From: an uncultured Gemmatimonadota bacterium
Lineage (GTDB): Bacteria > JAAXHH01
Direction: 5' to 3'
DNA length: 64,000 nucleotides
Assembly: GCA_951812955.1 (NCBI GenBank)
Contig: OX638340.1
Coordinates: 3,616,001 to 3,680,000, forward strand
The notes under the pieces were generated by a model. The model had not been told where the DNA came from. It saw only the letters and a list, made by a program, of their open reading frames with translations, and made no database searches. Shown here one piece after another: positions 16,216 through 25,733 of the stretch (the stretch's first letter is position 1; each line of letters begins with the position of its first letter). Position numbers and translations under genes: made by a program.

Positions 16216-17019
16216 TCAGTCCCGTCGCAGGTTGCTGAACTCCGGTTTCGGACCGCCCTCTTCACGGTCCCACTGCCACAGTTCCGTGTAGGGCGACTGG
16301 GCGTGGAAACCGAAGATGACCGGTCCGTCTTCGCCCGCCCGTTCGAGCACGTCCGGATTGACCACGCGGGGCATCTCGTACTCGCAACGGGTCCAACGCC
16401 TCCGCCAGGGGCTCAACACCGCATAGCGCGGCTGGTCGGTCTGGTTCTTCGTCGTACCATGCCAGGTATTCACGTCGAAGAGCACGAGCGATCCTTCCGG
16501 GGCGACGGCAGTCCGGGCGTTGCCATAGGCCGAATCGGGCACGTCGAGGTACTCGTACCGGTGGCTGCCCGGGACGAACTCCGTCGCGCCGTTGGTCTCG
16601 GTAAAGGGGCTCAGGCAGAAGATCGTGTTCAAGGCGATCGAGTGGCTCGTGATCCGCCGGCCCTCGTCGGCATCGGGCATGGATGCGTCCCGGTTGTGAC
16701 CGGTGATACCGCTGTCGGAATGCAGCCCGTGTCCGCCTTCACCGGGCATCACCACCGATCCGTACACGGCGCTCAAAAGCGCGTCGGGGCCCAGGAAGTG
16801 TCTCGTCAGCCTCAGATGGTCGGGAAGCTGGTAGAACCGTTCGAACACCCGCGCCTTGTTGAAGAGCCATTCGAAACTGCCCCGCTCGCGGTTGGGGTAA
16901 CGTGTTTCGAGTTCCCTTCGCGCTTCCGCGCATTCCTCTGCCGTCAACTGGTCCGTCAGGATGGTGTATCCCTCAACCTTCAGGTCCAGCACGTGGGCTT
17001 GAAAGGATTCGTCTGTCAT
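16216..17019 (-). CDS. PhyH-family dioxygenase (paralog 2)
   Basis: HxD motif GLHSDSG…; start placed at the internal MTDESFQ. Confidence 0.75.
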   Translation of the reverse strand: MTDESFQAHVLDLKVEGYTILTDQLTAEECAEARRELETRYPNRERGSFEWLFNKARVFERFYQLPDHLRLTRHFLGPDALLSAVYGSVVMPGEGGHGLHSDSGITGHNRDASMPDADEGRRITSHSIALNTIFCLSPFTETNGATEFVPGSHRYEYLDVPDSAYGNARTAVAPEGSLVLFDVNTWHGTTKNQTDQPRYAVLSPWRRRWTRCEYEMPRVVNPDVLERAGEDGPVIFGFHAQSPYTELWQWDREEGGPKPEFSNLRRD

Positions 17020-17120
17020 AGGTTGATTCCGGCTCTCATGTGATGCTTGTTCGACCAGCGCAGGGTTTGGCGGATCAACGGCCGGTATGGCCATCGCCCG
17101 GTCCGCGGCGTCCGCTCGAA

Positions 17121-17936
17121 TCAGCGTCCGGCCAGGTCGTCTCCGAGGTCGGTTGCGTCCACTTTGCCTTTCTCCAGGCTCACGCCGACGACGAAGAGCT
17201 CGAGGTCATCGTCCGTATGGTTGTAGATTCCGTGAGCACTGCCCAGGTTATTCAGAATGGCGTCCCCGCGGACGACCTCCTCGGTCTCGCCGTCCACCGT
17301 GATCCGGCCCCGGCCGTTCATGATCATGTAGGCTTCGTCCACGATCTCGTGCCGGTGGTAGCCCACGGAAGTACCCGGCGGCAGTAGGATATGGCAGAGG
17401 TATTCGAAATTTGTCGTGAAATCCCGACTTCCCCATACCTCCCGGAAAAGCACTTCGCCCTTTCCACCGTGATGCCGCCGGGGCTTCAGTAAGGCGCGGT
17501 TGAACCGTCCCACGGGCAATCGATCAGCGGACTCCAGCTTGACCTCTATGCGCGGGTCGTCGAAATCCTCGCACATCGGGGTGCGGGTGGGGTCCACACA
17601 GTGGAAGTTGAAGAACCAGGTATCCTGGTCCGAGTGGTTGTAGATGCCGTGGGATTCACCCGAGCGGAGGGGCACCGCCGCGCCGCCGTCGACTTCGGTC
17701 GTGCGGCCGTTGTGGGTGAACTGCATGGCGTTGTCGATGGTGACGAAGATCTCTTCCGAGTGGATGTGCGTGTGTTGCCCGATGCCGCTGCCGGGCGGGA
17801 AGATGACAGAGTGGATGAACGACCAGGGAGACTTGAACGCCGTCGCATCGAACCCCGGGTTGAAATAGCTCGCCGCGGCGCCGCCGTGGCTGACGCCCAA
17901 TCTCATCTCTTCGCGCCTTGTATGGGTTATCCGCAT
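17121..17936 (-). CDS. Bicupin protein
   Basis: 271 aa with two cupin_2-like halves (…IGQHTHIHSEEIFVTIDN… and …VGYHRHEIVDEAYMIMNGRG…). Confidence 0.7.
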   Translation of the reverse strand: MRITHTRREEMRLGVSHGGAAASYFNPGFDATAFKSPWSFIHSVIFPPGSGIGQHTHIHSEEIFVTIDNAMQFTHNGRTTEVDGGAAVPLRSGESHGIYNHSDQDTWFFNFHCVDPTRTPMCEDFDDPRIEVKLESADRLPVGRFNRALLKPRRHHGGKGEVLFREVWGSRDFTTNFEYLCHILLPPGTSVGYHRHEIVDEAYMIMNGRGRITVDGETEEVVRGDAILNNLGSAHGIYNHTDDDLELFVVGVSLEKGKVDATDLGDDLAGR

Positions 17937-17993
17937 GCGGACCGCTCCGGACTCCCCGACGATGGCATCATCCGGGGTGTATCTGTACCAAAG

Positions 17994-18794
17994 CTAAAGG
18001 GCGACTTCCTCGACAGGCTGCGTGCCGGTCTCGTAGGCGGGCCGCCACCGGTCGTGGGCCATGGACTCCTCCTCGCTGAGCCCGCACAGCCAGTTCCAGG
18101 TGTGGATGCGGCGTCTCAGGTCCCGGTAGGATTCCACTCCACTCGTGTATGGCGCGGCCGGCCGGTCGCGGTACACGGGGATTTCTTCCGAATCGATGAG
18201 CCAGTCGCGCTGCGGCGGTGCATTGCGGAAGTAGGAGAATTTGATCATGCTGCGGGGCTTGTGATTGAGCTTCGGGCCCGCCCGGTGCCAGATGCCGTAC
18301 CGGGTGATGGCCACGGTGCCGGCCTTCACTACGAGCGAAAGCTGGCCCGTGAGATCGCCGTAGTGGGCGAGGGCGTCGCGGTTGACCGCCCGGCAGTGGG
18401 AACCGGGCAGGATCATGGTCGGCCCGTCTTCGATCCCCACGTCCTGCGGATAATAGTAGCACTGGAGTTCGTTGATCTCGTAACCCTGGCCGGAAATGCC
18501 GTCCGAATGCCAGTCCTGACCCGCGACGGGCTCGTTTATGAGGTGGTGATGGCCGCCCGTCGGCATCAGGAAGTTGGCACCGAGCAGCGAACGTATCACG
18601 CCTGCCAGCCGCGGATGGAGCAGGACTTCGCGGACGAAATCCGGTGAACCGACCAGTTCCTTCGCGCGGCCGACCTTGACGTTGCGGCACTGCGCGTTGA
18701 AACCGGGATCCACCATTTCTTCAAGCACCGCGTAACCCTTCGCCACGAAATCCATCACGTCGTCGTCGGTCATTGTCGGTCTGATCTCCGCCAT
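17994..18794 (-). CDS. PhyH-family dioxygenase (paralog 3)
   Basis: 266 aa; …QDWHSDGISG… HxD motif. Confidence 0.8.
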   Translation of the reverse strand: MAEIRPTMTDDDVMDFVAKGYAVLEEMVDPGFNAQCRNVKVGRAKELVGSPDFVREVLLHPRLAGVIRSLLGANFLMPTGGHHHLINEPVAGQDWHSDGISGQGYEINELQCYYYPQDVGIEDGPTMILPGSHCRAVNRDALAHYGDLTGQLSLVVKAGTVAITRYGIWHRAGPKLNHKPRSMIKFSYFRNAPPQRDWLIDSEEIPVYRDRPAAPYTSGVESYRDLRRRIHTWNWLCGLSEEESMAHDRWRPAYETGTQPVEEVAL

Positions 18795-18806
18795 CGCAGC
18801 GCCTCC

Positions 18807-19169
18807 TCAGTTCCACTTCTCGAGTATGAAATCGAAACCCACGTAGTCGTTTTCCAGGTCCTTGTACTCGTACAGCTTGGGGATGGGGTACTGCACCACG
18901 CGCCACCCGTCGGCAACGGCCTCCAGCACGGAGTCGTACGGCGGCTCGTCGCCCGGCAGTCTCAGCACGGGCTTCTCGCCGGGAACGAATACCACCCAGC
19001 CCACGATCCCGGACCGCATATTGGTCGACCGTGCGGTCAGGTACATGATCTTCGGCCGGGGCGGGTTTTCCAAGAACGATTCCAGCTTGTCCAGGTCCCG
19101 TTCTTCCAGTGCGCCGTTTTCGAGTTTCCCGCGGCTTTCAGCGATCCACTGCCTGATTTCCGATTGCAT
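18807..19169 (-). CDS. Hypothetical protein, first gene of the minus-strand PhyH/bicupin/enolase cluster
   Basis: ~120 aa from the internal start MQSEIRQW…; no recognisable domain. Confidence 0.4.
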   Translation of the reverse strand: MQSEIRQWIAESRGKLENGALEERDLDKLESFLENPPRPKIMYLTARSTNMRSGIVGWVVFVPGEKPVLRLPGDEPPYDSVLEAVADGWRVVQYPIPKLYEYKDLENDYVGFDFILEKWN

Positions 19170-19533
19170 TTCGTGATGTCCCTTTGCCGAGTCTGACGTC
19201 GCGGACAATACAGATGCTAAAGGTGTAATGTACAAGGCGTTCTGATTATCGATGTCAGGAGTACGAATGCTCCTGCAATGGTACAGAGGCTACCGGTACC
19301 GTGTCAAGCAGGAATGAACCGTCTTTTTTGAAGGTGGTTTCGGCATGGAAGCCGCTGGTCTTGACAGCGTCCGGCACGCCGCTTAAGTTGCCTTCTGACG
19401 GTCATCGAAATGCGATCATCCAGGTCATTCAGTTCATTCCGACCAGCTGAACAGCGTGCGCAATTCGGGCAGAAACTTCCGGTCCGTCGATTTCCCGTTA
19501 CCAATTTCGATTCTCAGTTTAAAGGTATTCTAT

Positions 19534-20283
19534 ATGTCCCACGCGCAACCCCTGAATGCCCAGCAGATCGCCTACTTCAAGCTAAACGGCTACCTGGTCC
19601 TGAAGAACGTTTTCGACGAGGGAACCCTGGAGGCATGGCGGCGGCAGATCTGGCGGGCGCTCGATGGCTGCCTCGAAGATCCCGCGACCTGGCCCAGGGA
19701 AACGAGCGGTCTAGACGGGTACGATTACGATCCGCCCGAATCGGCCCTTGTGCACCATCCACAGATGATGGCGATCATCGACCAGCTCAGCGGGGGAACT
19801 TTCGTCGCTGGCGACGGCATTCCGATCATTCGGTGGCCCGATCCAGGAAAGTCCTGGGAAATGCCCCAAACGGGACATATCGATGCCTACGGGGGACGCT
19901 GGCTGCCCTTCATGATCGGCGCGACGACCTACCTGTACGACGTGGAACCCGGCGGCGGAGCCTTGATCTACTGGCCGGGAAGCCACCACGCCGCTCACCG
20001 GTACTTTCTCGAGCATCCCTCGCATGTCGACGGCAGCTTCCTGGAGATCGAGGGGTTTTCGTGGGACGTGTTCTGCGACAACCCGGCCACCGGCGGCCAG
20101 GAGTTTACCGCGAAGGCCGGCGACGTGGTGCTCTGGCATGCCTACCTGACCCACAACGGATCGGAAAATACCAGTCATTCGCCGCGCTTCGCCCTCTTCG
20201 CACGCTGGAACCATGAGAAACACCTGGAGCAGTCCTTCAGATACGAGATCCCCGAGGATCTGTGGAAGTATTGGGCGGTGTGA
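19534..20283 (+). CDS. PhyH-family dioxygenase (paralog 4)
   Basis: Start at MSHAQPLNAQQIAYFKLNGYLVLKNVF… (typical PhyH N-terminus); TGHIDAY HxD motif. Confidence 0.8.
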   Translation: MSHAQPLNAQQIAYFKLNGYLVLKNVFDEGTLEAWRRQIWRALDGCLEDPATWPRETSGLDGYDYDPPESALVHHPQMMAIIDQLSGGTFVAGDGIPIIRWPDPGKSWEMPQTGHIDAYGGRWLPFMIGATTYLYDVEPGGGALIYWPGSHHAAHRYFLEHPSHVDGSFLEIEGFSWDVFCDNPATGGQEFTAKAGDVVLWHAYLTHNGSENTSHSPRFALFARWNHEKHLEQSFRYEIPEDLWKYWAV

Positions 20284-20452
20284 GAGAGAACGCCTAAACT
20301 GCGGTTGTTTGATAGAAAACCGTCGTCTCGTGTAATGAGGCATACCTTAGAGCTGAAGATCCGTACAGAGATTCCCGGTTCAAGCCGGTTCGCTGTCTCG
20401 CCGTCGACAATATGATTTCGAGAACAGTCGCTGTTCCCCGACTATACTGTCA

Positions 20453-20863
20453 ATGAGCTCAGTACCGGAACCGGATCAAGAGGAAGATCTTATGGGGAAA
20501 ATCATGAATGATTCCGCGAGCGTATCCGTTTTCGAGGTCGTTGGCAACGCTCTTTGCGTTGCTTCCGACGACGGCCAGAGAGTACACGACCGACTTTCGA
20601 CTGCATTGAAGGATAGCCGCCATGTGAATCTTTCTTTTCGCAACGTGACATCGCTTACTTCGGCTTTTCTGAACACCGCGGTCGGCCAATTGTATGGAAC
20701 CTTCAGCGAAGATCATATACGTACGCAGTTGAACATCGAAGAAATGTCCCTGGATGATCTGGTGTTACTCGAGCGTGTGGTCGACACAGCGAAGCAATAC
20801 TTCAAAGACCCTCAAAGATTCGAACAAGCGCTTCGTGAGGAAATGGATGACTATGACGACTGA
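20453..20863 (+). CDS. STAS-like small protein (DUF4325-like), in a low-GC patch
   Basis: 136 aa. …HVNLSFRNVTSLTSAFLNTAVGQLYGTF… resembles the DUF4325/STAS-like consensus. Lower GC than flanks. The 3' end overlaps the next gene's start. Confidence 0.5.
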   Translation: MSSVPEPDQEEDLMGKIMNDSASVSVFEVVGNALCVASDDGQRVHDRLSTALKDSRHVNLSFRNVTSLTSAFLNTAVGQLYGTFSEDHIRTQLNIEEMSLDDLVLLERVVDTAKQYFKDPQRFEQALREEMDDYDD

Positions 20864-21395
20864 TTCCAAGGCGCTCGCGGTGAATGAACACGAATTCAGT
20901 CGTAGAGATAGGTTGTTTCTTGATACTAATATCTGGTTGTATCTATTCGGTCCGCATAAACCCAAGGCAAGAGCGATCGACACGTATTCAAGTGTGCTTA
21001 AGCGGATTCTGGATGCGGGTAGCAGAATCTATATCGACGTTCTGATCGTTTCAGAGTTCATCAACGCATGCGCCAGGTTGAATTGGCATCTTGCAACAAA
21101 CAGGAAAATTGGTTTCAAAGCATTTCGAAATTCGTCATCTTTCAAATCAGTCGCCAGGTCGGTGTCAAGCGACGCCGCGCGGGTTATGTCCCACTGCTTG
21201 CGTGTGGAAAGTGGATTCTCGGACATGGCCGCGACCGAATTGCTCAATGAATTTGTCACCGGAAAATGCGACTTCAACGATCAAGTTATCATAAGACTCT
21301 GTAAAAAAGAAGAACTAACCCTGATTACACACGACGCCGATTTCAAAGGCGCGGGGATTCCGATTTTGACAGCGAACCATCGTCTTCTGAACTAA
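20847..21395 (+). CDS. PIN-domain protein (VapC-like ribonuclease fold)
   Basis: LFLDTNIWLYLF (Asp-1 motif), YIDVLIVSEFINACAR (Glu motif), LTLITHDADFKG (C-terminal Asp motif). Start MTMTTDSK overlaps the preceding stop. Confidence 0.65.
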   Translation: MTMTTDSKALAVNEHEFSRRDRLFLDTNIWLYLFGPHKPKARAIDTYSSVLKRILDAGSRIYIDVLIVSEFINACARLNWHLATNRKIGFKAFRNSSSFKSVARSVSSDAARVMSHCLRVESGFSDMAATELLNEFVTGKCDFNDQVIIRLCKKEELTLITHDADFKGAGIPILTANHRLLN

Positions 21396-21399
21396 TCCC

Positions 21400-22227
21400 A
21401 TGCCCGCCTACCCCCGCTACCTCACCAAAGCTCAATTGGAGCAGTTCTGGTCCGACGGCTACCTGGTTTTGAAAGGCACGCTGGATCAAGAAGTGGTAGA
21501 AAAAGCCCGCGAATTCCTGCTGGACCTGATCCCGCGGGACCTGGTCATCCCGGACCACTACCACGCGAACCACGGCCGGTTCAAGCCCCACCACCCCGAC
21601 GGGAATGGCAGCTTTTTTGAACCTGCGATGCTGCCCCTGATGCAGAACGAAGCACTTTACGGCGCTGCCGTGGATATACTGGAGACAGAATACATCCGGG
21701 TGTGGGACGGTTCGGCGGGGATAACGCTAAGAAACCGCGCCATGGAAGGACGGCTCCAGAACCTCCACCTCGACGCTGTACCGGGAGGGCCCGAAGACCT
21801 GAATGAGGGGTTCCTTCGCACGGGAATAGGTATCGGCGGATGTTATTACCTGAACAAGGTTGAAGGTGAGGGCGGCGGCATCCACGTGGTTCCCGGCGGG
21901 CCGAACCGGGTGAGGGATATCATGCTTAACGAACCGGACGGTCTGACGCGCAACAACGGCTGGGGTCATATCACCGATTTTTCGTCGTCCATGGAGGTAA
22001 CCGGTGATGCCGGCGATTTCGTGCTGATGCATCACCTGATGCCCCACTCGGCCAGCGCCAATCACAACGCCGCGCCACGGATCGCCCAGTTCACCCGTCT
22101 GCAGGCCCTGACGGACGATGACGCCCGCCTCGCTCCGGGTCCCGACCGACCCCTGGACCCCGCAGCGCTTGGCGCCCTGACACCCCTGGGACGCAAACTG
22201 TTCCGCCTGGCCCCGTGGATCGGGTAA
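21400..22227 (+). CDS. PhyH-family dioxygenase (paralog 5)
   Basis: 275 aa; YLTKAQLEQFWSDGYLVLKG… N-terminus; LHLDAV motif. Confidence 0.8.
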   Translation: MPAYPRYLTKAQLEQFWSDGYLVLKGTLDQEVVEKAREFLLDLIPRDLVIPDHYHANHGRFKPHHPDGNGSFFEPAMLPLMQNEALYGAAVDILETEYIRVWDGSAGITLRNRAMEGRLQNLHLDAVPGGPEDLNEGFLRTGIGIGGCYYLNKVEGEGGGIHVVPGGPNRVRDIMLNEPDGLTRNNGWGHITDFSSSMEVTGDAGDFVLMHHLMPHSASANHNAAPRIAQFTRLQALTDDDARLAPGPDRPLDPAALGALTPLGRKLFRLAPWIG

Positions 22228-22242
22228 TTTGTAGTTCCGCAA

Positions 22243-24216
22243 TTGGAACGGACGTACTCCATGTCCTCTGAACCTCCCCGGTCCCGTGGCCCTTCGGCCA
22301 TATCCCTGCGGGCCGGGATCATCGGGCTCGCGCTCTCCGCCGTGGTGGCTTTCTGGGGCCAGTTCGCCGCCGATCACGCCGGTTACAACTATACCACCTA
22401 CGCCCATATCCCCTCGGCGCTGCTGATCCCCTTCCTGATCCTGATCCTGGGTCCCCACGTCCTGCTCAAGAGGCTGGCGCCCGGGTACGCCCTGACGACT
22501 TCCGAGCTGATCGTGATTTTCGTCATGGGCCTGATCGGTTCGATGGTGCCCGACTGGGGCATGACGAGATACCTGGTCTCCCTCATCACGGGGCCCTTCT
22601 ACCATGCGAGTCCCGAGAACCGCTGGGCGGAGACTTTTTTCGAGACCTTGCCCGGGTGGCTCGTGATCAGCGGCAAGACGGACGCGGTACGGGTTTTCTA
22701 CGAAGGCGCCGCGCCGGGTTACCGGATCCCGTGGATGGCCTGGATCTCGCCCCTGCTGTGGTGGATGTCGTGTTTCGCCGCCCTGATGTGGACGGGCGCA
22801 TGCATCGTGGTCATCCTGCGAAAGCAATGGGTCAGCCACGAAAGGCTGCGCTTTCCCCTGGGGGAGGTATCGCTCAACCTGATGGGCGTGGCGAAGGACC
22901 CGAACGAGCCGCCCATGGTCCGCACGACTGCCTTTCGTATCGGCGCCGGCCTGTCGCTGGCCGTCGTGTGCTGGAACATCGCCTCCTACTGGGACATCGT
23001 TACCCCTATCCCCATCATGGGGCCGGACCTGCTGTATCTGAAGGTCCATCCGTCGATACCGGATCTTCCCATCCGGCTGAATGTCTTCGTACTGTGTTTC
23101 GCTTTCTTCATAAACGCCGAGATCCTGTTCAGCCTGTGTTTCTTCCTGCTCTTCACCACGCTGCAGCGGGGGCTGATGAACATGCTCGGGATCACGGCGG
23201 CCACGACCATGTCTCCTACCGGGCTCGTGGGCACCCAGTCCATCGGTGCCCTGATCGCCCTGGTGGTGTGGGGATTGTGGATGGCCCGTCGTCACCTGGC
23301 CGGTGTGGCCCGGCGGGCGTTTCGAAAGGATCCGTCGATCGATGACAGCAGTGAGTTCTTCTCGTACCGGGTGGCGGTTTTCGGATTGATCTTCGGCATG
23401 CTCTACCTGCTGGCATGGCTTTACAGCATCGGCATGTCGCTGCCCGTCAGCCTTGTCCTCCTGGCCGTACTCTTCATCGTCTACATCGGAATGGCCCGGA
23501 TCGTTGCGGAGGCGGGTCTGGTCGCCATGGACCTGCCGGTAACAGCCAACAACTTCACCGGGGGCATTATCGGCGCCGACAACCTGGACCCGTCCTCGAT
23601 CACCGCTATGGGCATGACGAACGCCTTCGCCCGGAACTGGCGGACCTTTACGATGATCGGGCTGTCTCACGCCGCCTACCTGCAGCGCTGGATGGGGCCG
23701 TCCACCCGGCACCTCTTCCTCTGGATCTGCCTGGCCTTCGCCGTCAGTGTCGTAACTTCCCTCTACTACTACATCAGCGCGGGTTATGCAGTCGGCGCCG
23801 ATAATCTGCTGTCCAAGCCCGGCGACCTCGTACCCTTCTTCTACAACACGATCATGACGTGGAACAGCAGCGCAAGCAGTGTCTCGGAACTGGAACTGAT
23901 CTTCTTCGGGAACGGTATCGTCCTGTACATGCTGATGATCCTCGGACGCTTCATGTTTCTCTGGTGGCCGCTGCATCCCATCGGCCTGGTCGCCGTGGCC
24001 GCGGACACCGTGCGGTTCATGTTCCTACCCTTCCTGCTGGCCTGGCTCGTCCAGGTAATCCTGCTGCGCCTGGGTGGAGGAGCCCTTTACCGCAGAGCGC
24101 AGCCCCTGTTTCTCGGCATCCTGGTTGGATATGTCCTTGGGATGGCCCTCTCATTCCTGGTGGACAGCCTGTGGTTTCCGGCCGCACCGCACCAGTTCGA
24201 ATCCTTTATCAACTGA
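22243..24216 (+). CDS. Large polytopic membrane protein of unknown function (paralog A of 28259..30250)
   Basis: 657 aa with >12 hydrophobic segments. Shares ITGPFYHASPENRWAETFF… and RKQWVSHERLRFPL blocks with the 28259 gene. Confidence 0.7.
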   Translation: MERTYSMSSEPPRSRGPSAISLRAGIIGLALSAVVAFWGQFAADHAGYNYTTYAHIPSALLIPFLILILGPHVLLKRLAPGYALTTSELIVIFVMGLIGSMVPDWGMTRYLVSLITGPFYHASPENRWAETFFETLPGWLVISGKTDAVRVFYEGAAPGYRIPWMAWISPLLWWMSCFAALMWTGACIVVILRKQWVSHERLRFPLGEVSLNLMGVAKDPNEPPMVRTTAFRIGAGLSLAVVCWNIASYWDIVTPIPIMGPDLLYLKVHPSIPDLPIRLNVFVLCFAFFINAEILFSLCFFLLFTTLQRGLMNMLGITAATTMSPTGLVGTQSIGALIALVVWGLWMARRHLAGVARRAFRKDPSIDDSSEFFSYRVAVFGLIFGMLYLLAWLYSIGMSLPVSLVLLAVLFIVYIGMARIVAEAGLVAMDLPVTANNFTGGIIGADNLDPSSITAMGMTNAFARNWRTFTMIGLSHAAYLQRWMGPSTRHLFLWICLAFAVSVVTSLYYYISAGYAVGADNLLSKPGDLVPFFYNTIMTWNSSASSVSELELIFFGNGIVLYMLMILGRFMFLWWPLHPIGLVAVAADTVRFMFLPFLLAWLVQVILLRLGGGALYRRAQPLFLGILVGYVLGMALSFLVDSLWFPAAPHQFESFIN

Positions 24217-24368
24217 GTACTACCCTCATAAACTCACCAGAACACAGGATCGCGGAACCGTAAATGAAGCCCTGATATCGAAACCGTAAAAGAACGTCTG
24301 ACGAAAGTTCGCAATCATCCGAAACGGAAGCGAGACGCAATCATCCGAAACGGAAGCGAGACGCAACC

Positions 24369-25733
24369 ATGGCCACGAAATCCGGACGCCCCAATCTCCT
24401 GTTTATCATGGACGACCAGCACCGGCACGACTACCTGTCCGCGGCGGGAGCGACCTTCGTGCGCACGCCGAACCTGGACTGTTTGGCGGAACGCGGGGTC
24501 CGATTCAGCCAGTGCATAACCAACGCCCCGGTCTGCGCGCCCGCGCGCATCGGCCTGGCCAGCGGCTACCAGCCCGCGCGGCTGGGGTGCCTGGACAACA
24601 ACTGCTACCTGCCCCGCCATATCACGCCCTATTACGTCCGGCTTCGGGACGCGGGATACCGGGTCGGGTGCGTGGGGAAACTCGACCTGGCCAAGCCGGA
24701 TCCCTACAACGGCCGCCACGGCGACCGAGCCCGGGTGTTCGGTTGGGGTTTCACCCATCCCGTGGAATGCGAAGGCAAGATGCACGCGGGCATGGCGGAC
24801 CAGCCGCGGGGACCTTATGGATTCTGGCTTCAGGAGCAGGGACTCTTCGAACGCTTCCGGACGGATTACGCGGCCCGGGGAGCGCGGGGCTGGATCGAGG
24901 GTGCTTCCCATGATTCTATATTGCCTGAGGACGCTTTCGAGGATGCCTACATTGGCCGCCGCGCCGTGGAATGGATGGACACCGTCCCCGACGATTACCC
25001 GTGGCATCTCTTCGTCAGCTTCGTGGGGCCGCACGATCCCTTCGATCCGCCTACGTCATACGCGGAACGATACCGGGGCGCTGCCGTGCCGCCGGCAATA
25101 CGAAGCAACGAAGAGGGGAAGCCGTCCTGGGTCAACGCCCGTCGGCGCGACCTGTCCGAAGATGAAGTGGCAGTTACGCGCCGGCAGTATTGCGCGGTCA
25201 TCGAACTGATCGACGACCAGGTAGGCCGGATCATCGAAGCCGTAGAACGGCGGGGCATGGCGGAGGATACCATCGTCGTGTTCGCCAGCGACCACGGCGA
25301 AATGCTGGGCGACCATGGCCTGTACACCAAATCCGTTCCCTACGAGGTGGCCCTGCGCGTGCCGCTCATTGCCGCTGGACCAGGCATAGCGGGAGGGCGT
25401 ACTTCCGACGCCCTCGTGGAACTGATCGACGTCAATCCGACCCTGTGCGGTCTGGCGGGTCTGCCCGCCCAGGAAGGGCTCGACGCCAGCGACTTCAGCG
25501 CCGTGCTCACCGGGGATCGTTCGACCCACCGCGAGGAAGCGGCCAGCGCGCTTCGCGAATTCCGGCTCGTACGCACGGCGGATCACAAGCTTGTGGTGCA
25601 CCACACGGGTGAAACGGAGCTATACGACCTGAAAAACGATCCTGAAGAGCTTGAAAACGTGGCGGCCGATCGGCCCGATGCGGTCAACGCGCTGCGAAGG
25701 CGTCTGCAGCGGCGATTTCACTTCCCGCCCTAA
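24369..25733 (+). CDS. Sulfatase (formylglycine-dependent, Cys-type), no signal peptide
   Basis: 454 aa; NLLFIMDDQHR…NAPVCAPARIGLASG (C-x-P-x-R motif), followed by a typical sulfatase core. Confidence 0.85.
   Translation: MATKSGRPNLLFIMDDQHRHDYLSAAGATFVRTPNLDCLAERGVRFSQCITNAPVCAPARIGLASGYQPARLGCLDNNCYLPRHITPYYVRLRDAGYRVGCVGKLDLAKPDPYNGRHGDRARVFGWGFTHPVECEGKMHAGMADQPRGPYGFWLQEQGLFERFRTDYAARGARGWIEGASHDSILPEDAFEDAYIGRRAVEWMDTVPDDYPWHLFVSFVGPHDPFDPPTSYAERYRGAAVPPAIRSNEEGKPSWVNARRRDLSEDEVAVTRRQYCAVIELIDDQVGRIIEAVERRGMAEDTIVVFASDHGEMLGDHGLYTKSVPYEVALRVPLIAAGPGIAGGRTSDALVELIDVNPTLCGLAGLPAQEGLDASDFSAVLTGDRSTHREEAASALREFRLVRTADHKLVVHHTGETELYDLKNDPEELENVAADRPDAVNALRRRLQRRFHFPP

Follow-up and report, generated by a model that had tools for sequence, protein, structure and literature searches.

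We analyzed a two-gene module in a stretch of 64,000 nucleotides (hereafter, the window) from an uncultured Gemmatimonadota bacterium (contig OX638340.1, positions 3,616,001 to 3,680,000). The module consists of two same-strand open reading frames (ORFs) in different frames, 20453..20863 (+, 136 aa) and 20754..21395 (+), and both flanking genes match PhyH (19456/19534..20283 and 21400..22227). The upstream protein has Pfam DUF4325 ("STAS-like", 3.6e-14) as its only significant Pfam match and no NCBIfam match, and the downstream protein matches the Pfam PIN domain (PF01850, 1.1e-9). These matches agree with an earlier note, made from the sequence alone, which had described a small acidic STAS/DUF4325-like protein and a PIN-domain protein between two PhyH genes and had proposed profile searches for both families. 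Scans of the two proteins against NCBIfam and PADLOC gave nothing useful; PADLOC 2.0 has no model for either of them, and public records label their homologs only as "STAS-like domain-containing protein" and "PIN domain-containing protein". Based on their homology to the antitoxin and toxin of the VapKSC system (described below), we designate the two genes vapS and vapC. Their features are as follows.

20504..20863, + strand: vapS, STAS-like (DUF4325) antitoxin of 119 aa (Pfam, homolog lengths and match to chain A of PDB 9Z7O)
20853..21395, + strand: vapC, PIN-domain toxin of 180 aa (Pfam PIN and family profile against chain C of PDB 9Z7O)
20853..20863, + strand: vapS/vapC overlap of 11 nt (ATGACGACTGA), with the TGA of vapS at 20861-20863
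20837..20842, + strand: GAGGAA, a Shine-Dalgarno-like motif in the 3′ end of vapS, 5′ of the vapC start (read from the sequence)

The 136-aa ORF given for the STAS-like protein in the earlier note exists, but it is over-extended. Because the 709 VapS homologs found are mostly 119-123 aa long, the start was placed at ATG 20504 (119 aa), with an in-frame alternative at ATG 20492 (123 aa). The DNA encoding residues 1-13 of the longer ORF can be aligned with the last part of an upstream gene that has been lost (see below). The family-consistent start of vapC is ATG 20853 (180 aa), as the note had it, and ATG 20847 (182 aa) is possible; VapC homologs, like those of VapS, are numerous and very uniform in length. 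The 11-nt overlap indicates that the two genes are probably translationally coupled, which had also been proposed, and GGGGGA/GGAGGA-like motifs occur in related loci at the position equivalent to GAGGAA. The computed pI values are 4.5 for the acidic VapS and 9.1 for the basic VapC. The lower GC content noticed previously was confirmed, with 0.476 for the pair compared with 0.606 and 0.615 for the left and right flanks. Related loci show the same pattern: in each of the 49 that have 2 kb or more of flanking sequence, the pair lies below its surroundings, by a mean of 6.6 points.

Homology to the VapKSC system

VapKSC is a three-gene operon, vapKSC, that was named and characterized with the proteins of Escherichia sp. 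E4736 (Chambers, Rani, Min, Villa, Corbett, EMBO J 2026; PMC13373217). In that work, VapC was toxic in E. coli and its D28A mutant was non-toxic. VapS is the antitoxin, which restores growth and binds VapC in a 2:2 complex (PDB 9Z7O); its C-terminal helix lies within ~6 Å of the VapC active site. Ser48 of VapS is conserved and buried at the interface, and the phosphomimetic mutant S48E loses both binding and rescue. The third protein, VapK, is a CapK-like kinase with STAS and GHKL domains, which is predicted to be activated by single-stranded DNA (ssDNA) and frees VapC via phosphorylation of VapS. The operon conferred ~2 logs of protection against phage Bas42 (PMC13373217).

A phmmer search with the window VapS matched Escherichia VapS (9Z7O chain A) with an E-value of 3e-14, and the VapS profile matched it with 4.7e-21, spanning positions 3-119 of 121. 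The VapC family profile (A1) matched Escherichia VapC (9Z7O chain C) with 5e-10, and the catalytic residue D24 of the window protein (codon 20922-20924) aligns with D28 of the Escherichia toxin. The AlphaFold model of VapC has a pLDDT of 89.6. Its best fold matches in the PDB (Foldseek) are VapC toxins of VapBC complexes (7vwo, 2fe1, and 3zvk), with target-normalized TM-scores of 0.6-0.7. The acidic positions of the PIN domain are D24 (in the LDTN motif), E68 (SEF), D140 and D143 (DFNDQ), and D161 and D163 (THDADF) in the 180-aa numbering. All six show no or almost no variation across the family alignment, and the motifs quoted in the earlier note are all present. Two functional elements of VapS can be placed by alignment with the Escherichia protein.

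20660..20662, + strand: codon of Ser53 (119-aa numbering, in LTSAFLN), aligned without gaps (HMM alignment) with the phospho-acceptor S48 of Escherichia VapS
20786..20860 (approximate), + strand: C-terminal helical acidic region of VapS, ~residues 95-119 (the alignment to 9Z7O chain A reaches almost to the C-terminus)

The C-terminal region is the counterpart of region 94-116 in Escherichia VapS, which extends to the active site of VapC, and V96, V97, A100, Y103, F104, P107, and F110 (123-aa numbering) are invariant in this part of the VapS alignment (A2). One homolog, P0001 (228 aa), consists of the whole VapS sequence tandemly duplicated and fused in one polypeptide.

Gene neighborhoods were surveyed in 80 metagenome loci, collected via the PIN family alignment, and three genome loci; this sample is partly redundant and overrepresents relatives of the query. 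Of the related PIN loci, 72 extend at least 330 nt upstream of the PIN gene, and every one of them has a DUF4325 gene directly upstream on the same strand; the pairing is thus more than chance. The overlap among 73 non-redundant related pairs is 8-20 nt in 66 and exactly 11 nt in 40. The earlier note had proposed such a survey and had named a lack of synteny, together with a PIN protein that is non-toxic alone, as grounds for giving up the idea of a module. The synteny is strict, and the homologous PIN protein, Escherichia VapC, is toxic alone. The proposal of a toxin-antitoxin (TA) or small defense module in which a STAS-like protein is the partner of a PIN nuclease is thereby supported by the experiments on the Escherichia homologs (PMC13373217).

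Clustering of neighboring ORFs revealed the usual third partner, a protein of ~290 aa encoded directly upstream of the pair in 50 of 56 loci. It shows weak matches to HATPase_c, and the N-box, G1, and G2 motifs of GHKL proteins are invariant, corresponding to VapK. The family is large (1509 matches), and its sole sequence match in the PDB is a weak one to a histidine kinase. A profile-profile comparison of VapK and VapS detected no similarity; the N-terminal STAS domain of VapK is thus unconfirmed here. Dataset EV3 of the VapKSC paper includes the operons of Deinococcus gobiensis I-0 and Candidatus Nitrotoga sp. AM1P (PMC13373217). The same two operons were recovered independently in our survey (a plasmid locus encoding ATP-binding, STAS-like, and PIN proteins, and VapK match P0268), indicating that the families studied here are those of the paper. 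The module is normally composed of three genes in the order vapK-vapS-vapC, and the window copy is a derivative without the kinase.

About half of the loci are bracketed by genes for Type III restriction-modification (R-M), with the cassette placed between the methyltransferase (Mod) and the restriction helicase-nuclease (Res) on the same strand. Mod is located upstream in 15 of 29 loci (PADLOC MTase_III, 1e-110) and Res downstream in 20 of 37; L007:2448-5638, L008:6551-9259, L028:585-7308, and many other metagenome loci are examples of nested vapK-vapS-vapC cassettes. Dataset EV3 contains no RM_type_III entry, which may reflect a failure of PADLOC to recognize operons interrupted by the inserted genes, and the nesting is unrecorded there. 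A DUF488 protein (PADLOC candidate PDC-M19A, 2e-95) is encoded between vapC and Res at L006:6625-7584 and also in L009, L026, and L056. At L061:5640-7558, a VapK homolog lies downstream of vapC, giving the order S-C-K. Carriage by phages or plasmids is atypical, with one viral contig, one plasmid record, and one phage record.

The earlier note did not recognize the pair as a named system. However, the pairing was catalogued in 2017 as PIN.4, a PF01850-type PIN group with 5-6 conserved acidic residues and a coupled DUF4325 gene (Matelska, Steczkiewicz, Ginalski, NAR 2017), before it was named VapKSC in 2026. No function is assigned in the PIN.4 entry, which does not refer to a kinase (Matelska et al. 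2017). The window family agrees with this entry in its six conserved acidic positions and its invariable DUF4325 coupling, as judged from the published description of PIN.4. The novelty of the window locus is therefore modest: its kind of module is already known and named, and this instance lacks the defining component.

Compared with canonical VapBC, the window pair has the same VapC-fold PIN toxin and a small acidic antitoxin encoded upstream in an overlapping frame, and neutralization by direct binding is presumed in both. In contrast, the antitoxin has a STAS fold and no DNA-binding domain of the AbrB, RHH, PHD/YefM, or HTH type. Because of this lack, VapS is not expected to show the autoregulation known from classic VapB proteins. 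Escherichia VapS also leaves the active-site Mg2+ in place, unlike many VapB proteins (PMC13373217). The STAS side of the module resembles CapK-CapS, SpoIIAB-SpoIIAA, and RsbW-RsbV, in which a GHKL kinase targets a Ser or Thr at a helix start of a STAS protein and phosphorylation breaks a protein-protein interaction. CapS differs in being a transcriptional repressor with STAS and winged-HTH (wHTH) domains, preceded by a CapK of HTH-STAS-GHKL architecture, and SpoIIAA and RsbV act on anti-sigma factors. By analogy with its Escherichia homolog, the window VapS would instead bind a nuclease; it has 119 residues with DUF4325 only, no HTH, and no adjacent kinase gene.

Loss of vapK and selection on the remaining pair

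HMMs of VapK, Mod, and Res had no match anywhere in the 64 kb window, and a tblastn search of the window with VapK from L088 found nothing significant. Close relatives of the window pair (L084-L087, L001, L002, and L004; 76-98% identity in the PIN protein) are likewise bare pairs between the same PhyH genes. The related genome represented by L088 and L089 shares PhyH, cupin, DUF6785, and sulfatase synteny with the window. At the exact site of the window pair, it carries genes for an AAA_15 ATPase, a 153-aa protein, an 83-aa protein, VapK (290 aa), VapS, and VapC. In a blastn comparison with L088, the match extends to the stop of the upstream PhyH gene (20283) and resumes at 20466, which corresponds to L088 position 7614, 29 nt inside the 3′ end of vapK. 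The region between the PhyH stop and vapS can be divided into two parts.

20460..20491, + strand: probable vapK remnant of ~30 nt, now the leader of vapS (aligns with the last vapK codons of L088 by blastn and MAFFT)
20284..20459, no strand assigned: spacer of 176 nt from the upstream PhyH stop to the vapK remnant, with no identifiable feature

The N-terminal extension of the 136-aa ORF, SSVPEPDQEEDL, resembles the C-terminus of VapK (SSEVDPEDVF, ending at the stop codon). Region 20460..20491 is thus probably the scar of a vapK deletion, and the alignment supports this deletion without proving it alone. Neighbor-joining trees of VapS and of VapC both recover the kinase-less clade as monophyletic; L088/L089, which bear the kinase, are its sister, and other kinase-bearing lineages branch outside. 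This nested position suggests that vapK was lost once in the window lineage, which is the parsimonious reading. A second, unrelated kinase-less lineage is formed by L053 and L024. In L053, the order is Mrr, Type III Mod, VapS, VapC, and then a PD-T4-4-like ATPase, and in L024 the vapS-vapC pair stands alone among housekeeping genes.

The L088 segment at the site of window 20284-20503 (L088:4628-7642) includes the AAA_15/AAA_21 ATPase gene, whose product matches PADLOC NsnB (4e-46) and is AriA-like; the 153-aa and 83-aa island proteins have no family matches. In this lineage, the space between the two PhyH genes resembles a hotspot with variable defense-gene content. Between the window and L088, the synonymous divergence (dS) is 1.97 in the 3′ two-thirds of vapC (21087-21395) and 1.07 in the downstream PhyH gene (21400-22227), compared with 0.49-0.76 in vapS and the other flanking genes. 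This excess suggests a recombination tract that may end inside vapC.

The ratio of nonsynonymous to synonymous divergence (dN/dS) between the window and L085 (dS ~0.5) is 0.16 for vapS and 0.28 for vapC, and the flanking PhyH and DUF6785 genes show values of 0.13-0.15. Both ORFs are intact in all members of the kinase-less clade, and the catalytic residues and the C-terminal motif of VapS are kept. From these comparisons, the kinase-less pair is evidently held by purifying selection. A decaying pseudogene remnant was considered and rejected because of the dN/dS values and the conserved catalytic residues.

The phospho-acceptor column of VapS shows a different pattern. The residue equivalent to S48 is Ser in all ~64 readable VapS sequences from VapK-bearing loci. 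In the kinase-less clade, it is Pro in L001, L002, L004, and L085-L087, and Ser in the window and L084; the change from Ser to Pro occurs only in kinase-less relatives. The substitution is probably one evolutionary event. It fits a relaxed constraint on the phospho-switch after the loss of the kinase and appears compatible with this history, which is not a statistical proof.

The spacer 20284..20459 is similar only to sequences of the kinase-less relatives. It has no Rfam match, no gene remnant, and an unremarkable folding z-score of -0.23. One weak reverse-strand blastx match to Mod (E = 0.007) was disregarded. A 21-nt segment within it (20357-20377, agatccgtacagagattcccg) is 95% identical in L085-L087, and conservation drops strongly across the rest of the spacer. 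This segment might serve in regulation; it showed neither a promoter consensus nor an Rfam match nor a stable fold. A search for boundaries of a mobile element around the pair detected no meaningful direct or inverted flanking repeats, no tRNA, and no terminator consensus.

The wider surroundings (window 16216-25733) are a dense run of PhyH-family dioxygenase paralogs, cupins, sulfatases, and DUF6785/DUF6784 membrane proteins, including a conserved ORF without a family match at 18807-19235 on the minus strand. This gene order is repeated in the related genomes (L084-L089). The nearest named relative of the vapS-vapC pair is a metagenome-assembled genome of Candidatus Latescibacterota (L001).

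Proposed mode of action, alternatives, and significance

The window locus shares with VapKSC the homologous VapS and VapC, the gene order, the overlapping frames, the catalytic Asp, the C-terminal region of VapS, and the phospho-acceptor Ser, and its nearest kinase-bearing relative (L088) occupies the same chromosomal site. It differs in that neither the locus nor the rest of the 64 kb window contains the defining vapK gene; what is left is a stretch of ~30 nt that resembles its 3′ end. The route from ssDNA via VapK to phosphorylated VapS cannot work in cis in the window copy, and sister lineages lack even the acceptor Ser. The locus is a kinase-less VapSC derivative, not a full member of VapKSC. 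Because of the VapS and VapC homology, the strict synteny, the deletion history, and the purifying selection, we consider it likely that the pair is a functional kinase-less VapSC toxin-antitoxin derived from VapKSC through the loss of vapK.

By analogy with the Escherichia homologs, translational coupling would produce the acidic VapS together with the basic VapC in a fixed proportion. The STAS domain of VapS would bind VapC, and the C-terminal helix, placed beside the active site, would block the access of substrates. VapC would be a Mg2+-dependent PIN nuclease, probably an RNase, that is silenced by VapS. Without VapK, Ser53 would be a switch with no cognate kinase, and VapC might be freed only upon depletion of VapS by proteolysis or by shut-off of its synthesis, as in ordinary type II TA systems. 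The outcome would be growth arrest under stress or phage attack, and the pair would also be hard to delete. The kinase-independent trigger in this scheme is purely conjectural.

Several observations weigh against this assignment. The identity of the window VapS to Escherichia VapS is only 30%, and VapC is related to the characterized protein at the profile level only; a single-sequence search with the window VapC gave no match to Escherichia VapC. The AlphaFold model of VapS is poor (pLDDT 61), and its fold search was non-significant (top match RsbV from the RsbV/RsbW complex, E = 0.34) and was given no weight. The putative vapK remnant is short, and its identity is modest at only ~64-71% over ~30 nt (counted on the MAFFT alignment). 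No sigma-70-like promoter was found on the + strand near the pair. Finally, the window VapS itself retains the acceptor Ser, leaving room for control by a kinase encoded elsewhere.

Such control in trans, in which a VapK- or CapK-like GHKL kinase from another part of the genome would phosphorylate Ser53 upon DNA damage and free VapC, appears unlikely, though less so than the other alternatives. Both the window and L084 keep Ser53 together with an adjacent invariant Thr, and paralogs of VapK are plausible given the size of its family and the existence of related CapK kinases. Against this, the window contains no VapK homolog, and none of the best 120 of the 1509 VapK matches could be attributed to window-like genomes, which is a weak test. 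Moreover, sister pairs with the same deletion carry Pro at the acceptor position and are still under purifying selection, so that the pair can evidently persist without the switch.

Another possibility is that a degraded defense island has left the pair behind as an inert or purely selfish element that does nothing for the host, either retained because loss of vapS before vapC would be lethal or already decaying. The genes located upstream in L088 are gone from the window, the low GC content that recurs throughout the related loci is typical of horizontally acquired selfish modules, and the dN/dS of vapC is somewhat above that of its neighbors. We regard this explanation as quite improbable because the ORFs are intact across the clade at a dS of ~0.5 with dN/dS well below 1, and the six acidic residues of VapC and the C-terminal motif of VapS are conserved. 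Mutations that inactivate the toxin would be neutral or beneficial under pure addiction and should have accumulated; the conservation of the toxin thus argues mildly against addiction alone.

A role of the STAS protein as an anti-sigma-factor antagonist in partner switching of the SpoIIAA/RsbV type, with the PIN gene as an unrelated neighbor, would accord with the STAS-like Pfam assignment and with the non-significant RsbV match of the VapS model, but it is effectively refuted by the synteny and context (invariable PIN co-occurrence with overlapping frames, PhyH genes as neighbors, no adjacent gene for an anti-sigma kinase or sigma factor, and no GHKL match in the window) and by the crystallization of the homologous pair as a direct VapS-VapC complex (9Z7O).

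Returning to the kinase-less VapSC toxin-antitoxin, we tentatively propose that the VapS-VapC core may be an autonomous two-gene TA or defense module that selection has kept after the loss of VapK, with a second, phosphorylation-independent mode of VapC release such as VapS turnover. The lineages without the phospho-acceptor Ser point to such a release, although we would not put this proposal at even chances. If it is true, kinase-less VapSC would be a distinct and recurrent architecture, present in at least two independent lineages of our sample, that VapK-seeded surveys would miss. The published VapKSC census was seeded on VapK (PMC13373217), and kinase-less pairs therefore lie outside it.

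For annotation, the names VapS and VapC can now be applied to the window locus and to many others. The nesting of the cassette between Mod and Res fits the idea of the authors of the VapKSC study that DNA damage generated by R-M could feed the kinase (PMC13373217). The window lineage offers a natural experiment in which the sensor has been deleted, the TA core has been kept under purifying selection, and the acceptor has changed to proline in some members; it bears on whether the core needs VapK to be useful and on what other triggers of VapC there may be.

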